Both the position numbers and the translations under genes were made by a program. A stretch of DNA of 64,000 bases from Octopus vulgaris. Taxonomy: Eukaryota. Position 1 is the stretch's first letter; every line of letters begins with the position of its first letter. Shown here piece after piece: positions 1,814 to 59,334 of the stretch. The notes below the pieces were generated by a model. It did not search any database. It was not told where the DNA came from and saw only the letters and a program-made list of their open reading frames with translations. The stretch spans positions 47,492,001-47,556,000 of the forward strand of contig OX597824.1 in the NCBI GenBank assembly GCA_951406725.2. The letters run 5' to 3'.

Positions 1814-1973
1814 GCTTCAGATATAGAAAGTACTTCAAACAACGCCATGAAACCTTGTTCCACAGTAATAGACACAGAAGGGAACCAATTTTCTCCAGAT
1901 TTCAACTTCACCTGTGAAACTGATAATGACAATACATTAAATATTTTCCTTCCCAATGATGGATTGATTGTAG
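1814..1973 (+). CDS. HMG-box gene, exon A (ASDIESTSNNAMKPCSTV...NDGLIV)
   Basis: Acceptor tttcaag|G and donor G|gtacct. 160 nt open, ending in phase 1, which fits the next exon. An in-frame ATG in GCCATGA context at 1847 could be the start, or further exons lie upstream of the window. Confidence 0.7.
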
Positions 1974-16856: not shown

Positions 16857-17836
16857 CATAGTGACCATCACCACAAGAAGATTTGTTTCAACACATGAAT
16901 TCATATCAAGAATCTTGCAAACCAAATACAAAAACAAAAATTGATTAAAATTTCTATGTATAATAGAAAAATATTTTGTGTGGATTCAGCCATGTAACTA
17001 ACATTTTAAAACTTCTGTTGAATGATAAGAGGTGCAACCACATCCATTAAGTAATCTTAGCTACTAGAGTGAAGAACATGCAAATAAGCAATATAGCCAA
17101 ATATTGAGATTCTGGATAATCTGTAACAGTAAACAAGTCAATTGTATATATATTTAATTTGCAATTCAACAACATGTAGTGTATATAAAGATTTCTTAAT
17201 ATTAAATTTATAAAATTTAGAATTTTTATAATTTCATTAAATAGGATCTGATATTTTACATAATGTTCTTCCTTAGCTAGAAATTAGTTTTATGTTTAAC
17301 AGTTAAAATAGCTTATGATAACCATTTAGCATGAAATATCACATGCGTCTAAGTTGTTTTTAAAAACTGAATAAATCTGTTGGTTTGATGGAATTTTTTA
17401 AATAAAAAGTAGAAAAGGTTTAAGATCTAAAAAATTATCTGGATACATATGTACCAAGGTGTAAACATGTAAGAAAGAAGGCTCTAAAAGGCAAACATGA
17501 GTGTTTAAAGTTAATACAATTATTTTTATTTTAAACGTTTATTTTGATTTTAATAATATGTATTACAAATGAGTATTAAGAATTTCTAAGCAAGTAGTGT
17601 TTATACCAGATTAAAATACAAATACAAAAATACATTAAAAAAAATAGGAAGGTGACATAATTGTTACTCTGAAATAAATAGATATTTCACCATACAACAC
17701 TAAAATTAAAACACTATCATTAAAATAACAATCATGAAATTTAATGTAATGATTTACATTTTTTCCTTTCTCTTCTGTTTAAATAATTCTCACATTCCAT
17801 CAGTTCTTAAGCTCCCTTCCTTGTATATATCTCTTT

Positions 17837-18463
17837 TTAAAGCAAATGTGGAGCAAAATACTTCACAAATGGGTTGTCTTTATCTTCTCCAAATATAAAA
17901 TCTAGCCATGCATTTACATATTCATCCTGGCTCATTTTACCCACATGATCTTTCACCATGCATTCAAAAACTTTGTCAATTACCTCCTTGTTGTCATATC
18001 CAAAACAAGCCAATCCCTTTTCGAGTTCATCACACGTTATAAAGCCATCTTTGTCAAAGTCAAATATTTGGAAAAATAATGTTACAGCAGATTTCAGGCT
18101 GTTCCGAGCCATAAGTGGATCAACTGTCATAAGTTGTCCAATTGCACCAATATACTCATCCTCAGAGATTTTGGCACCATTTTTAATTGCTTCAGCCATT
18201 TGTGTCACCAATGGCATAACATCACCACTGTGTTCATTGTCAACCTTTTTAAACCCATCAACAAGCCACCCATAAATTTCTTTTGCTCTGTCCTCATCCA
18301 AATTGTACTGCACTGCAAAGCGATTAGCTATAAGTTCAAAGTCTTCTTTAGCCATGAATCCATCTTTTGTAGTATCCATCATTTTAAACCATACTCTTAT
18401 TTTCTCTTTCACAAAGTCAGAAAAGTGGATTTTATCAGTTGAAATCTCTTCTAAATGTGACAT
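17837..18463 (-). CDS. Sarcoplasmic calcium-binding protein (SCP)-like EF-hand protein, 208 aa, intronless CDS
   Basis: ORF 17837..18583 read from Met41 (MSHLEEISTDKIHFSDFVKEKIRVWFKMMDTTKDGFMAKEDF). EF loops DTTKDGFMAKED and DFDKDGFITCDE, with degenerate EF2/EF4. The N-terminus resembles annelid/mollusc SCPs as recalled. A splice acceptor (ctccttgttcag|) just 5' of 18485 indicates non-coding upstream exon(s). Confidence 0.88.
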   Translation of the reverse strand: MSHLEEISTDKIHFSDFVKEKIRVWFKMMDTTKDGFMAKEDFELIANRFAVQYNLDEDRAKEIYGWLVDGFKKVDNEHSGDVMPLVTQMAEAIKNGAKISEDEYIGAIGQLMTVDPLMARNSLKSAVTLFFQIFDFDKDGFITCDELEKGLACFGYDNKEVIDKVFECMVKDHVGKMSQDEYVNAWLDFIFGEDKDNPFVKYFAPHLL

Positions 18464-19088
18464 TATGTAAAACTTTTTGTTGTCACTGAACAAGGAGAAA
18501 CAAATGTGTAGTGACCTGTATGAAAGAATCCTGATCAAATGTTTACATTTCTCTGTAGGAATTATCCTTTTAAAGCAAATCATGATCAGATTATCTAGAT
18601 TTAATCAGATTAGCAATTTCATCAGCAATAAGATTAACCTCTCAAATCTGCAGAAAAAAACATTATTCATTTTTTAATTGCATCTGGGGGAAATATCTAT
18701 TACAAATCCCAAACAGCTTTGTAGTCATGGGAATATTCCAAGTATGAATCTGAGAATAAGCAGAACTCTGTGTTTGTGAAAGTGTCAAATGGTTGAGATA
18801 TTGTAGTCATGAGTTCATATTCTCATATATTCATTGTATCACTCGGTAGGAGATATTTAATTTTGTGTGGTTCTGTCTACTTTGTCCTGGAATCTATCCA
18901 AGAAGAGAATCATACTTTAATAGATTAATATCATAAAATAGAATTTGCAAGTTCCTATGTGTCATAGAAATGTGTGTTCATGTAATCCTTAAATTTTGAG
19001 GAAAAATTCTAAAGTTAACCATCTACATTAGTAACAGCTTATTAAATGAAAAGATTAAAATTTCTTTTACTAATTACTTTGTAGCTGT

Positions 19089-26805: not shown

Positions 26806-27222
26806 AATTCTATTTTTTCTTTCTCACTTGACCGCTGGTAGGGGAGAATTTTTCTAGAATTTTTTGCTACCCTAAAATTTATTAATTAATGATTTTTTGG
26901 CTAATTTTGAAATTAAATCGGCAGTTTATATTTACTGCTGAGTAAACCATGCGAGCGTGGTGGATTTTGAAAATTTATAGCATATAGACTCGAGGCGTGT
27001 TTATCATCGCCTAGTGGATATATGTTAGTCCTTGGCTTTTCTGCTGACGAGGCAACGCCAGTGGTAAATGAATTAATTAAATTAATTTATTTACGAAAGA
27101 TTGCCGAAACTATGCATAGTCCAGAAAGGAGAGGGTAAACGTTTTTATTTCTCTTTCCATTTCAGAATTATAACTATTAGTGGTTTGGAGTTTAGCTGCT
27201 CTTTCTAGTAAGTCGGATGTCC

Positions 27223-29417: not shown

Positions 29418-30942
29418 TATATTGAGACATAATGTTACAATAGAATCTGCAGAAACTACTAAAAAATTTTAGATTTAGTTTATGTTTTAAGACCTCCAAC
29501 TTCACTTTTGAAGTAAATTAAAACCAATTGAAATTTAATCTGACTTCTGTATTCCAAATAATGTTAGTTTCTTTTGTCGTATTATTTGTTTCTTGCATCA
29601 CTATGACAAAAGTGTCACACTTAATCTTTTGCAAAACTTGATACTAAATGGTTTAGCATTTAGATTATACAACCTAGAAATTCTATCATAAACTAATAAG
29701 AAAAACTGAACTAAGAATATGTTAAGCAGCTTAGTTAACATGAAGCTTGTCTTTGATTATTAGCATCTGGTTCATAGTTCTAGTCAAAGTATTTGTCAGG
29801 AATCCAATAGTCTTGCACATTGATATGTATTATGGATTCAAGTTAGCTACTAATGAGAAAAGAATTATATTTCAAACACTGATTGATGAATAGATTTAAT
29901 GTAAAGGAAGTCCTTATTGGATTAGTTTCTTAATACAGATTACTCATGTTTCAGTTGTATAGATTATGTGTGGAGTTTCTAGGCTAAAATGGTGAGAAGA
30001 ACTCTGCATCATCGTCACTACTGATCAGCTAACAGAATCATTAGTATCAGAACAAATACCGTAAAGTATTTGTTCTGGCTCTTTATGTTCCAAGTTCAAA
30101 TCCCACTGAGGCCAACTTTATTTTTCATCCTCCAGAGTTGATAAAATGCAGTACCAATCAAGTACAGGGGGTCAATGATAGTGACTAATCCCTTCCCTTC
30201 AAAATTGCTGAGCTTGTACCAAAATTAGAAACCCTTATTATTATTATTGTTGTTGTGATGATGAGGGATAGGCAAAATCATTAGTACATTGGACAAAATG
30301 ATTTGTAGTATTGCTCCTGGGTCTTCTGAGTTCAAATCCTGCTTAGGTCAACTTTGCCTTTCTTCCATTCAGGTTGATGAAATATTGTACTAATCTAGTA
30401 TTGAGGTTGATGTAATTAACTTTCCCTTTATCCTCAAAATTGTTGACTTTCTGCTTCATAGAAATAATTATTATTGTTGCGATAATTATTTAGTCATAGC
30501 ATAGATTAGAGAATGCTGCAAAACAAAATAATATTTTAGTTTCTCTGATTGTATCTGATTAAGTCATTTTCCAGGGTGTACGTCTGGTAGAAGCAGCCAC
30601 AACTAAAACCTCTCAGCACTTTTTCATGAAGTATACGTCATCCACTTGTATTAATGTCCATTCCACCATAATCAGGAAACATACAGAAAATTCTACAAAT
30701 TTGAATATTTGCAAGTTTTATTCCTAAGCACTTTTGCTTGTGGCAACTTTCAACTACACACACACATGTATATATATAAAGTGGTGGTATGTTGTCAACT
30801 TGATGTGACAGTCTCATGAAAGGGAAGAATACTACTGCTATTTAGCCTTAGGAAGCACTGCTTCCTGTTGGTCTTGAGACATTTCCTGTGTCCTTATGTT
30901 TACAAAGGGGGGGATAAGCACCTCCACTCAACAGAGCCAGCA

Positions 30943-30985
30943 GCCAGAGACTAGTTTCTGAGTCGTTGCTCATCATCAGTCTGGC
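30943..30985 (-). ncRNA. Minimal type I hammerhead ribozyme
   Basis: The minus strand reads GCCAGA CTGATGA TGAG-caacga-CTCA GAAA CTAG TC TCTGGC. This gives a perfect 6-bp stem I, a 4-bp stem II, palindromic stem III ACTAGT and a GUC cleavage site. Confidence 0.82.
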
Positions 30986-31049
30986 CATGCATTGTGTATG
31001 GATGAAGACAGCTGTGAGAAGTGTTATACTCTAACAGTAGAGGGAACCT

Positions 31050-31576
31050 GTGGAAGAGGTAGACCCAGGAAGACATAGGATGAGGTAGCAAATCATGACC
31101 TTCGAATATTGAGCTTTACAGAGGCAATGACAAGCAACCGAGATCTTTGGAGATATGCTGTGCTTCAGAAGACTTGGCAAGCCAAGTGAGATCATAACCA
31201 TGGTCGATGCCTTGTCACATAACAGGCCCATTTAAAAGTACCCTTCAATTGTCAGGCAATATGCTGTACTTGAGAAGACCCATTGAGTCGAGTGAAATCG
31301 TAGTCATGGGCGATGCCAGTTCCACCTGACTGGCACCCATGTCAGTGGCATGTAGAAACCATCATTCAAGTGTCGCCAATCCCAGTGCCAGTGGCACATA
31401 AAAATCACCCACTAGACACTTGGAGTGGTTGGTGTTAGGAAGGGCATCCAGCTGTAGAAACCATGCCAGATCAGATTGGAGCCTGGTGCAGCCTCCTAGA
31501 TTGCCAGTCCTCAGTCAAACTGTTCAACCCATGCCAGCATGGAAAGCAGACATTAAATGATGATGATGATGATGAT
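31050..31576 (+). mobile_element. RTE 3'-UTR-derived element/SINE ending in (GAT)n
   Basis: ...ggaagggcatccagctgtagaaacc...caacccatgccagcatggaaagcagacattaaatgatgatgat, the same tail as the RTE LINE. Related tails at about 2250, 3508, 5010, 23335 and 26665. Confidence 0.7.
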
Positions 31577-34534
31577 ATATATATATATCATCATCATCAT
31601 CGTTTAACGTCTGTTTTCCATATATATTTTAAATCTGGGTTTTGTCCCTGTTAATGGGAGTGGTTGGATTTACCACAATGCCATAGCAACCACCCTCACA
31701 CCATTTCGCCATCTTGCCCGGTTTTGGGCGTCTTTCCCTCTCAAGCCAACCCTCCCAATCTCCTTGGTCTACCTCACTTTCGATGTCCATTTACCTCAAA
31801 CTGTAGCACCCACTTCAGAACATACCCTTCATCCCTCCTCACACACATGCCCATACCACCACACTCCATTTGCCTTTGCCAGCCATTCCAGTGATTCCTC
31901 CAACTCTAGCATCCCCATCAAGTCCTCAATCCTCCTCTTATCAAACAGTCTCACACCACACATTTCTCTCTCAGTCCTCAAAATTGCCATCTCTCTCTCT
32001 CAAACACCATGTCTCACTCCCATACAGCATTGCCACTCTTACACAACTATAGACCTTTCTTTTCATATTCAATGAGATGAAAAAGCCTCATGATAATAGC
32101 ATGACATATATCCTTTAAGAATATGCATATTTAAGCTCCTATTTTATTATGCCAGCAACAGCCTAATGATACCGTCTGGCAAGAGCAGTTTTTTGGGGTT
32201 GCACTGAGCTGTATTAATATAATGTAGGACAAGTGTTGTAATAATAATAATAACAATCCATGGATGGAATTTATAAATATTTTAATGCATCACTATGTGT
32301 GTTTCCACAAATCACACTTTTCTTACAATCATAGTCTGTATTCCTGGGATGATTACAGTATAGTCTGTGGTATCCATGGACGTGAGATGGATTATATTCA
32401 TGTGTTCATTTTTTCAGGTGATATAGCATTAACGATGGAAGCAGTAGATGTATAAATGAGGGTTGGCTATCAATTTTGACCAATGCAAAGGTTGGTTGGG
32501 GTATATGGGCATTCCGTATTTGGTGGGGGAGAAGATGATAGAAAGAAAGAAAGGAATAGTAGTTATAAAGGAGAGGGAGGTGTGTGATGATGTTAAACTT
32601 ATTTTGATATTTGAGTATGCAGATGTCAGTAGTATAGTTCCTTAGTTTGACCTTAGTCACAGCAGATGCCCTGCTCAATGAATTCAGATGTAGTAGGGTC
32701 AACAAATATAATTATTCAGTTGTTGGAGTTCATTGTCTGAGTTGACAAATATGTATATACAAGTTACCTATTTCTCAGTTACATAAATCAGAGTAGGACA
32801 CAACACTTAAGATAGGCTTTGTAGAATGCAATGCATCTATTATCTTCAGTCATTAGACTGTGGCCATGCTGGGGTGCCACATTGAAGAATTTTAGTTGAA
32901 CTAATTGACACTAATACTTATTTTCTTTTTAAGCCTGGTACTTATTCTATTGGTTGTTCTTGCCAAATTGTTACAGGGATATAAGCACACCAACACTGGC
33001 TGTCAAGTGGTGGTGGGGAAAACACACACACATATATCTACGAAGGGCTTCTTTCAGTTTCTGTCTACCAGATCCACTCACAAAGCTTTGATCGGCCTGA
33101 GGCTATAGTAGAAGACACTTGCCCAAGGTGCCATGCAGTGCAACTGAACCTGGAATCATGGGAATCATTGGGGAGCAAACTTCCTACCATACAGCTTCAC
33201 TTGTTCCTAATACATGTAATAGTAAGGTTTGTTGAACACATTCCTTGTCATAGGGTTTGATGCCATAGTTAAATGTTTAGTTTTAGATTCAGTACCATTA
33301 CATGACATCTTGGTCAAGTATTTTCTATTATAGCCCCCAGGTCCACCAAAGCCTTTTGACTGGGTTTGGTAGATGGAGACTGAAAGAAATCTATCATATA
33401 AATATATCAACATCATCAGTGTTTTGATGTCCACTTTTCAATGCTTGCATAGGTCAGACAGAATTCATTAAAGCTGATTTTTCTATAACTGGACACCTTT
33501 CTCATCACTGACATTTTTCCAAGCAAAGTATTATTTCTTCATAGTGACATGTTTTCACGGAAGATTGCAAATGGAGATTGCTAGTATGATGGTAATGTTT
33601 GTTTACAACTGTGGTGCAATGTCAAGACAAAGAGAACATACACACACCCATACAATGGGCTTGTTAGAGTTTCCCTTCACCAAATCTACTCACAAGGTCC
33701 TAGTTGGATCAAGGCTTCCGTAGAAGACTCTTGCTCAAAGTACCAACATTGGGATTGAACCTCTCAACCACCAAGCCATACTTACATTATATAATGTGTG
33801 TGTGTGCAAATCTGTATGAATGTTTACATTCTGCACATCACATGAAAAAGCACTAAGCTACAAATGGTGAAATTTTTTGACATTCTCTCTCAACAAATTA
33901 CCTGGTAGCTCTGCAATTTGAAAGACATGAAGTAAAAAAAATCTCTTATTTGAGAAACAGTTAGGGTTAGCAATAGGAAAAGCATCTGGCTGTATAACAA
34001 TGTCTCAATATATGTATTTATCTAGCCCATGTTAACATGGGAAAACAGATGTAGAACAGATTACAATCAAAATAGTATTTAAAATTCTTTAAAAGAAAAA
34101 TATATTAATGATGTGAAAGCTTTAGAGGATGTACTTATATATATATATATGTTGTGTGTGTCTCTCCCTAATGTGCTAGCTTGACCTTGCACATTAGTTG
34201 TAAACAAATGCCACCCACATATAAGTGATGTCATTTATTTCCAACATCTGTGAAAACAGCTTAGTGTTTGTAATAGGAAGGGCATTCAGCTGTAGAAAAT
34301 CTACAGCAATGACTTCAGTATGACCTATGCAAGCATGAAAAAGCAGATGTTAGAACACTGTTGATGTGTGCATACATACATACTTCACTCACAAAGTATT
34401 GGTCACCCTACTTGCTCAAGATGTTACACATAAGAAATCCAAAATCATATGACAACAAAGTAAACTTCACAAGTATGTAGCCATTCCTGTGCCTTTTTAT
34501 ATTTCTGTAAAATTTATTTAATTATTTATTACTT

Positions 34535-56972: not shown

Positions 56973-59334
56973 CTGCAAAAAATGAAATATATTTATCAAT
57001 ATGTTTTCAATATACATTTTGAAAATAATATGAAGATAGATTAAAACAATTAACCTTTTCTATTTTAAAAATGAATTTGCTTTCTTATACTGACACAAAT
57101 TGTTACATTTATAGTCAAAGGGGGTGAGATTGTATAATGTTCATGTTTCGCAAAGGCAAGAGTAATATAAATGAAGTGAAATGACTTCATCACAAAGAGT
57201 CCTTCCTCTTCAAGGTCAGAAAATACTTCATCCCTCAACATTTACAAACCCTCTACAAAGCTCAGGTGTGACCCACAATGTAATACTGCTCTCACATCTG
57301 GGATGCTGCTCTATATATACACAGACATTCAACACATTTCAATCTCTGGTTCACAAATCTGTTGTCACTTCTTTCCCCTTTCAGTCTTTTCTACTGCTAC
57401 TACTGTGGCCTCTGTTTGCCAAAGCTATCTGATCTTAAACCATCTCTTCTTGACTCATTTGATTCTTCTCGTCCCCCATATCATGATTCTAACCTCAGGT
57501 CTTACATTAACCACTCTGTTTAGTCCTTCTCTAAATGCTGGACCTCTGGAATTCCCTTTTTTGCCTATGTCTTTCTGGTAGCTGTCAACTTTAAATATTC
57601 AAGAGGAGCATTAACTATGTTGATCTCAATAATCTCAAAGAGCCTTCAAAGGTCATCAGTACAGCTCCTTCTTCCTGACCAAGCTAATAAAAAAATGCAA
57701 GAATCAAAAGCAAGTCACTAATAAATAAATTCTACCTCACAACAATGACCATAACACTATATAATAGAATATCAATTTCTAACTTTTGCACAAGGTCACA
57801 AGGAAGGATTATAGTGACTTGAACTGGTCCCAGTACATGTCTTGCAATACTGGGGAAATGAAAGTAAAATTAATTTTAGTGGAATGTGTACTGTAAATTA
57901 TGAAGACGGTACAGTTAGACATATTTTCTCTATCACTTTGCTACCATTTGTCTTACAAAATATGAATATTATAAATACTGTAAAATACAAGATACTTTTC
58001 CATGACTATATATAAATCATAGTATGAACTTTAAAAAATCATGTTTTGATATTTTCATTTTATTTATTACTATTATCAGTAAGTGCTGTGGAATGCTGAG
58101 GACAACTACAATGCTAATAATGTTAAGCAGCAGAGAGATGTCCCTACTGAATAAGATGTCAGTCTGTTACAGGTTTTGAGAGGTTTGATCTGAGCACTGC
58201 AATTTTAAAAAGATAAAAGCAGCCTAATTCCTTGCACTTGATTGCATACAATGCTGTATTGTATCTCTTCATATTTACATTTATTTAGATCTAACCATTG
58301 GCTTGTGACAGTGCATTACCAATAAACGAATATGAATAGCTGGTCCTTCAATCCACCAGCTAGTTACCTCTTACTACACACCTACCTATAACTCTCAACA
58401 AAAGTATTCCTAGAATGAGACTTCATTTCTTTGGCAGTTAAGACAAAGTTTTTAAATCTTTGGTAGTCAAATGATTTTATCTCTTGTAACTTCTCAGCTT
58501 TGATCATTTTAATGGTGAACATGTTAATAATGTTGATTCCAGTCAAGTGATGCATTTGTTGCAACCTCATTAAAATATAACCAGCTGGCTCTGCACTTCT
58601 ATTGTTTTTTTGTGCTATAAGTACAATAATGGAGTTTGCTTCATTAACTTTTAATATAACTATATCCCACCCAAGCCCATCTCTTGCATTCAATCCCTCT
58701 ACTATATATTGCTTAATACTGTACCTTTATGGAACTTCCATGACTACTATTGCCTCCAGACACTAACCTCTCACATATAACAGATAAAGGTTAACTGCAG
58801 TTATTTGTATCATTGAGTCACCTGATCTAGGATGGACTAAACACTATGAGCACTATCCCAACTTTTCTAAGAGATGGAATCTTTATGTAGTTGTTTGATC
58901 AGTTAGAAATAGTGGGTTTCAAATTTTGGCACAAGGCCAGCAGTTTCAGTGGTGGGGGTAAGTTGATTACATCGACCTAGTTTTCAATTGGTAATTATTT
59001 TAACAACCCCAAAAGGGATGAAAAGTAAAGTTGACCTTGGCAGAATTTGAATCCAGAATGTAAAGACAGACAAATGCCACTAAGCCTTTTGTCAAGCATT
59101 CTAACAATTCTGCCAGCTTGCTGCCTTGATCAGTTAGAAATAATAGCCCATCACTTTCCTGATCACATCCTTCTATTTTAGAAACAGAATGACACACGAG
59201 ATAATGTTGTTCTTGAGATACAAAAAGATGGTATGTTCACTGTCCTTAGAGTAAAACAACAACTATTAAAAATACAACAAAAACAATCCTAATCCACCCC
59301 CATTAAATAACCTGTGACACAGTTGTAGACTGAC

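Follow-up and report, generated by a model that had tools for sequence, protein, structure and literature searches.

A 43-nt stretch on the minus strand of an Octopus vulgaris contig reads as a hammerhead ribozyme, which raises the question of whether it arose by chance, serves a neighboring gene or was left there by a mobile element. Positions below are those of the window, by which we mean the whole 64,000-nt stretch of DNA that was analyzed.

The hammerhead motif and its immediate surroundings

The minus strand from 30985 to 30943 reads GCCAGA CUGAUGA UGAG caacga CUCA GAAA CUAG UC ^ UCUGGC, an exact match to the string given in the preliminary description, with GCCAGA (30985–30980) and UCUGGC (30948–30943) as the two strands of stem I. 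The cut is predicted from the sequence to fall between 30949 and 30948. All parts of a type I hammerhead core are present: CUGANGA, GAAA and UH, helices I–III, and an open helix I. The pairs of stems I and II are Watson-Crick in this copy, as had been claimed, and ACUAGU at 30955–30950 is indeed a palindrome. The features of the locus are as follows.

30943..30985, minus strand: type I hammerhead motif, with stem I at 30985–30980/30948–30943, core CUGAUGA at 30979–30973 and GAAA at 30958–30955
30959..30972, minus strand: stem-loop II, with a variable first position (U-A here), then conserved G-C, A-U and G-C, and a six-base loop
30950..30955, minus strand: palindrome ACUAGU; 1 bp plus a tetraloop in the monomer, a 6-bp helix III in the predicted double hammerhead
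30776..30984, minus strand: 5′-truncated copy of a 349-nt retrozyme-like unit (unit positions 1–209), its 3′ end at the first of two preferred end sites
30926..30942, minus strand: orphan 3′ strand of the family’s extended stem I, whose partner strand (unit 332–349) is missing in the window copy
30756..30775, minus strand: TA/TG microsatellite-like 3′ flank, a target type for which the 349-nt family is enriched
30982..31370, plus strand: unrelated interspersed repeat remnant, meeting the 5′ end at a CCA microhomology of 3 nt (30982–30984)

The motif is not a chance product. In a structure-aware scan, none of 300 local shuffles of the window contained a match as compact and as well paired; without the compactness limit 2 of the 300 shuffles matched, and 20 gave any match at all. 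Rfam models detected no hammerhead: neither the window (E ≤ 1), nor a 301-base stretch (E ≤ 10), nor a full family copy gave a match. The structure-aware scan of the window returned one other hammerhead (27036–27129, plus strand) and no further one. That one is also type I; its stem II is AT-rich and very long, its helix III has 5 bp, and a TA microsatellite follows about 110 nt later. Our motif had been described as the third in the window and as unrelated in its flanks to the other two. This held against the hammerhead at 27036–27129 (best BLAST match 12 nt, E 2.9); the remaining hammerhead of that description could not be located.

Alignment with family copies moved the host boundaries from the roughly 30780–31030 proposed earlier to 30984–30776. 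The window copy is thus 209 nt long, 91% identical to the family majority sequence, and has the hammerhead as its 5′ tip. G30985 is a base of the neighboring repeat, whose homologs carry the same base where the 349-nt family has T, and the outer G-C pair of stem I is borrowed from that repeat. The repeat remnant at 30982–31370 is putatively LINE-like. Further along are an abundant SINE-like repeat (31382–31621, with a palindromic stretch at 31539–31621) and decayed LINE RT fragments (37433–36343, minus strand). The window copy has no recognizable target duplication (best 7 nt) and no inverted arm, and there is no second copy of the 349-nt family within the 64-kb window. Its fold z-score is −0.27, versus −2.99 for the full copy at locus L008. 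It is probably a dead, inactive fragment.

A dispersed family of 349-nt units

A genome search with 30780–31060 gave 3226 first-look candidates. For every search we scored the top 40, and here each of these was either the window itself or a copy matching at 87–91%. Most of our queries favored copies spanning the ribozyme. Aligned copies match from 30984 downwards. A 26-letter core pattern (at most one mismatch) matched the genome 545 times and a 35-nt core pattern 128 times exactly, both with 0 control matches. The earlier suspicion that the motif belongs to a hammerhead-bearing repeat family of its own was therefore borne out by the 545 core matches.

In other copies the sequence 5′ of the hammerhead is the one found 3′ of it, a circular permutation, and at locus L022 the distance from hammerhead to hammerhead is 349 nt. 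The unit is non-coding, with 349 nt, 41% GC and one type I hammerhead. A SINE starting at the ribozyme was ruled out, since other copies extend 5′ with the unit’s own downstream sequence. The ATG in the core was likewise rejected as a PLE start codon, since every CUGAUGA contains one. Tandems with at least two hammerhead regions (L022, L233) were rare among the loci seen, and the window locus is not one of them. Arms of more than one unit made up 34 of 158, the longest reaching about 2.5 units. The check for copies and tandem arrays that had been proposed thus yielded copies and partial tandems; long arrays were not among the loci fetched. Locus L227 (G000:C11:34957001-34967000) holds two near-equal units, 2.3 kb from each other and sharing the same ends, which probably arose by local duplication and not by two insertions.

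Arms are 90.6% identical to the majority sequence in the median, and this divergence of about 10% indicates that the family is old. Folded as a circle, the majority unit is rod-like, with a z-score of about −9 against 60 shuffles. Family-like pieces also occurred in assembled contigs of two runs that we guess to be RNA, although such contigs cannot show strand, ends or circles.

These properties are those of animal non-LTR retrozymes, in which a low-GC, non-coding unit within 150–450 nt carries one type I hammerhead. Also shared with the described members (PMC7229834) are GC below 50%, tandem permutation and target duplications of more than 4 bp. Described metazoan members include those of coral, mussel (350–390 bp) and axolotl (330/350 bp) (Cervera and de la Peña 2020, PMC7229834). 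The octopus copies differ in being mostly dispersed, of 0.5–2.5 units and with inverted arms, not in long arrays, and in being known here from sequence alone. Searches of main texts on hammerheads, retrozymes or Penelope in octopus or cephalopods brought up no cephalopod retrozyme and no description of the 349-nt family, although the supplements of retrozyme papers may list cephalopod matches. The family is best read as a newly found cephalopod member of the known animal non-LTR retrozymes.

In some copies a module of about 1.9 kb, which contains an ORF1-like frame with a CCHC knuckle, is inserted directly ahead of the ribozyme at unit position ~330–342 (L106, at G000:C1:124212001-124222000; L107–L120; L221–L225). 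The order unit, module, unit recurs at many loci, also in diverged subfamilies, where the frames have about 470 codons (436–483). Such an order would be expected if the unit were a solo pseudo-LTR belonging to a larger element with coding capacity: a protein-coding retrozyme whose gene is ORF1-like with a zinc knuckle, or an autonomous PLE not yet discovered. However, the module is flanked by a duplicated 13–15-nt stretch of the unit, is often stacked two or three deep, and in 4 of 20 regions (L212–L215) follows another junction sequence, without a detected unit. This is the pattern of a nested site-specific half-LINE, and on the same grounds we down-weighted the module as cargo of the retrozyme. 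Direct unit-to-unit junctions without the module are also common. In 36 regions of 10 kb that surround copies of the unit or the module, we saw no RT frame linked to the unit, and an RT with GIY-YIG between pseudo-LTRs including the unit was found neither there nor at any of 30 GIY-YIG loci. We regard the larger coding element as unlikely. The CCHC-knuckle frame has 506 relatives and 14413 genome candidates; by eye, splice-donor-like motifs lie near both module ends. The module is absent at the window locus.

Could the window copy nevertheless have been recruited to act in cis as a ribozyme, in the pre-mRNA of the EF-hand protein SCP or in a transcript upstream of it? The motif is on the same strand as an uninterrupted EF-hand (SCP-like) frame at 18463–17840 (minus strand), and its core is intact. 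Intact cores are common in the family, however, as the 128 exact 35-nt matches show, so this one needs no selection. A contig of run X2, the only transcript-like one, is identical to window positions 17593–18535, across the SCP frame, and is unspliced to 18535 with no spliced loose end; contigs of this kind cannot show where a transcript starts, and an exon further upstream may exist. The hammerhead is 12.4 kb from the last base of that contig, has lost the distal stem I with the drop in fold z-score given above, and has no second family copy in the window to pair with. Nothing that we found ties the motif to the SCP transcript, and we consider co-option very improbable. The open frame at 56992–56555 (minus strand) has no Pfam match. 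It presumably represents the last exon of an HDHD5/CECR5-type hydrolase, which, if right, would place the hammerhead between two minus-strand genes.

Architecture and conservation of the hammerhead

The motif had been taken for a minimal one. Full copies contradict this: their stem I runs past an internal loop for about 10 more pairs, and the window motif looks minimal because truncation took the 5′ strand of that extension. The full copies match the canonical metazoan type I architecture laid out in PMC4209133, with a helix I of 6 bp, a helix II of about 4 bp, and a helix III of 1–2 bp under a small palindromic loop. They do not match the min-HHR of metazoan PLEs, which the same source depicts with no helix III or loop 3, a helix II of 7–8 bp and a short helix I; here helix II has 3–4 bp, helix I has 6 bp plus the extension, and loop 3 is present. 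Loop 1, which in the canonical form is available for contact with loop 2, lacks its closing 5′ strand in the window copy. The extra base after A9 and the palindromic helix III are features shared with PLE hammerheads (PMC4209133).

The first stem II position varied among 60 distinct motifs, with U.U in 21, C.A in 20, U-A in 9, A-U in 6 and other combinations in 4. The unusual U-A pair that had been pointed out is therefore real in the window copy and not a trait of the family. The second pair is G-C in 56 of the 60, so the usual G-C is present, one step up. A U.U at this position is also seen in the axolotl HHR_Amex2 (PMC7229834).

Core columns were 92–99% conserved in about 105 copies, which were partly selected on the core. 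Diverged subfamilies, with units 66–75% identical, keep the core but differ in paired stem bases: in stem I, 5 of the 6 positions show double-sided changes, and such changes are also present in stem II. Stem pairs were counted on a motif-anchored parse, and MAFFT alignments of the diverged motifs misplaced helix III. The pattern of substitutions suggests that the hammerhead fold is selected.

Of the 60 motifs, 50 have ACUAGU as helix III, 4 have a palindrome of 8 nt and 1 has one of 10 nt; the other 5 are non-palindromic, and 3 of these can form a short helix as monomers. The preliminary description expected efficient cleavage only from dimers. A 1-bp helix III under a palindromic loop, as in HHR_Amex1 (PMC7229834), fits that prediction, and the occurrence of three different palindromes in related subfamilies supports it. 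Nearest-neighbor energies, which ignore core contacts and are weakly informative, gave a probability of 2.6e-7 for the monomer hammerhead fold, and −25.2 kcal/mol for the double hammerhead versus −24.2 for two monomers. Double hammerheads between two copies are known from amphibian repeats (PMC7229834). The newt satellite 2 ribozyme (Forster et al. 1988, as cited in PMC4209133 and PMC7229834) likewise has a weak helix III that needs a second copy, although it is found in satellite arrays and the octopus units as dispersed fragments.

Sister subfamilies with other helix III forms (8- or 10-nt palindromes, or 3-bp stems) are found at loci L221 (6226–6301, minus strand), L222 (5860–5935, plus strand, and 1884–1960, minus strand), L223, L224, L225 and L153. 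Loci L222 and L153 also carry a CCGA core variant.

The insertion footprint and the probable route of mobilization

The ends of the copies record how they were inserted. Among 158 distinct arms, 61 had their 3′ end at unit 195–212 and 58 at unit 255–275, so 119 ended within two intervals that cover 39 of the 349 positions, against 17.7 expected if ends were uniform. Our queries were biased toward arms that extend to unit ~205, but this bias does not account for two sharp peaks. The two fixed end positions are about 55 nt apart. The 5′ ends, in contrast, were spread out, with no spike near the cut (6 of 158 in unit 33–43, about 5 expected).

We found 43 head-to-head pairs of arms, of which 27 had both outer ends in the intervals. 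All 27 used one of each end site, as did 6 of 6 such pairs fetched later, for a total of 33 of 33; a seventh later pair had an end just outside an interval. Flank duplications of at least 10 nt (one mismatch allowed) accompanied 19 of the 27 pairs versus 6.6% of mismatched pairs, and the target duplications of head-to-head insertions were mostly 10–14 bp. A dinucleotide repeat was present in the 3′ flank of 45 of the 119 arms versus 8.7%. Variant sites were common to the repeats within one insertion in 483 of 2090 cases versus 175 expected.

When 30 loci were picked by sequence downstream of the cut alone, 25 read through the cut, 1 had a deletion across it and 4 began 3–14 nt after it. None of the 30 started exactly at the cut. 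It follows that cleaved linear monomers were not the usual template, and that a circle or uncut tandem RNA was.

The combination of 5′ truncation, partial tandems, an inverted 5′-truncated arm, two 3′ end sites and AT-rich or microsatellite targets corresponds to the hallmarks of PLE insertion listed in PMC8557442. The stretch between the two 3′ ends resembles the optional “tail” of PLEs (PMC8557442, PMC11167929), at about 55 nt versus the 30–40 nt given for PLEs. In a lizard PLE (PMC11167929), two internal RT starts bound the “tail”, and both DNA strands are cut and extended. The octopus unit differs from PLEs in having no RT or GIY-YIG frame of its own. Many intact RT plus GIY-YIG frames of 781 aa are present in the genome, and none of the 30 GIY-YIG loci had DNA similarity to the unit; likewise, no sequence link joins the unit to the Neptune-type elements examined. 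Those at L128, L133 and many other GIY-YIG matches form one young PLE family of this type, in which many intact frames of 781 codons score identically and CCAAT/TGACGTC-rich repeats lie downstream of the frame.

Our preferred reading, to which we assign a probability of about 0.8, is that the motif is the ribozyme of a 5′-truncated copy, probably inactive, whose family is a dispersed animal non-LTR retrozyme with a non-coding unit of 349 nt, and that a Penelope-like RT/endonuclease probably inserted it into the genome. Partial-tandem masters would give multimeric RNA, in which pairing of their palindromes would join two hammerheads into a double hammerhead that releases 349-nt monomers. Closed by a host ligase, these would become rod-like circles, which a single weak hammerhead is not expected to reopen. 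In TA-rich DNA, a dimeric Penelope-like enzyme would make a staggered cut and use each of the two DNA ends to prime cDNA, at two internal positions of the RNA (unit ~208 and ~263); synthesis would read through the cut site and stop at random. The window copy would be one such cDNA, begun at site ~208 next to the TA/TG repeat and ended at the first bases of the ribozyme, which would account for its intact core, its lost distal stem I and the lack of a partner hammerhead nearby.

The same family and a Penelope-like enzyme could also work from another template, namely an uncleaved linear tandem transcript, with the hammerhead acting at another step or rarely and with no circle. The one PLE tested in vitro used uncleaved RNA as its main template, with no reads ending at the cut in the experiments concerned (PMC11167929), and by that precedent read-through needs no circle. 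The absence of a 5′-end spike at the cut and of arms longer than about 2.5 units among those seen fits this as well. However, no long tandem master that could supply linear transcripts was found among the loci fetched, and the strong rod-like circular fold and the selected palindromes fit the circle route of animal retrozymes (PMC7229834). We judge an uncleaved template to be a real possibility, at somewhat worse than even odds. About as tentatively, we propose a dimer-gated circle: with a palindromic helix III only multimers would be cut, the 349-nt circle would be immune to its own ribozyme, and the halves of a dimeric Penelope-type enzyme would start at different fixed sites of that circle, one per DNA end. 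If true, this would account for two things, the puzzling “tail” of PLEs and the strict use of one end site each by inverted arms; the start region of the RNA would, in addition, serve as a landing pad for site-specific half-LINEs.

A recent study (Li, Clavereau and Pollet 2026, 10.64898/2026.07.22.740005) proposes that animal retrozymes are non-autonomous elements derived from PLEs, with monomers dispersed over the chromosomes. It deals mainly with vertebrates, with no octopus or molluscs in its main text, and argues from phylogeny, whereas the octopus evidence is an insertion footprint. The window copy itself is ordinary debris. The family to which it belongs adds a cephalopod example of the retrozyme. 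In print, the route by which ribozyme repeats are mobilized is mostly inferred, and two fixed starts, one per DNA end in 33 of 33 pairs, provide clean genomic evidence on it. The unit is also a short natural substrate for studies of Penelope-type priming and dimer-dependent cleavage.
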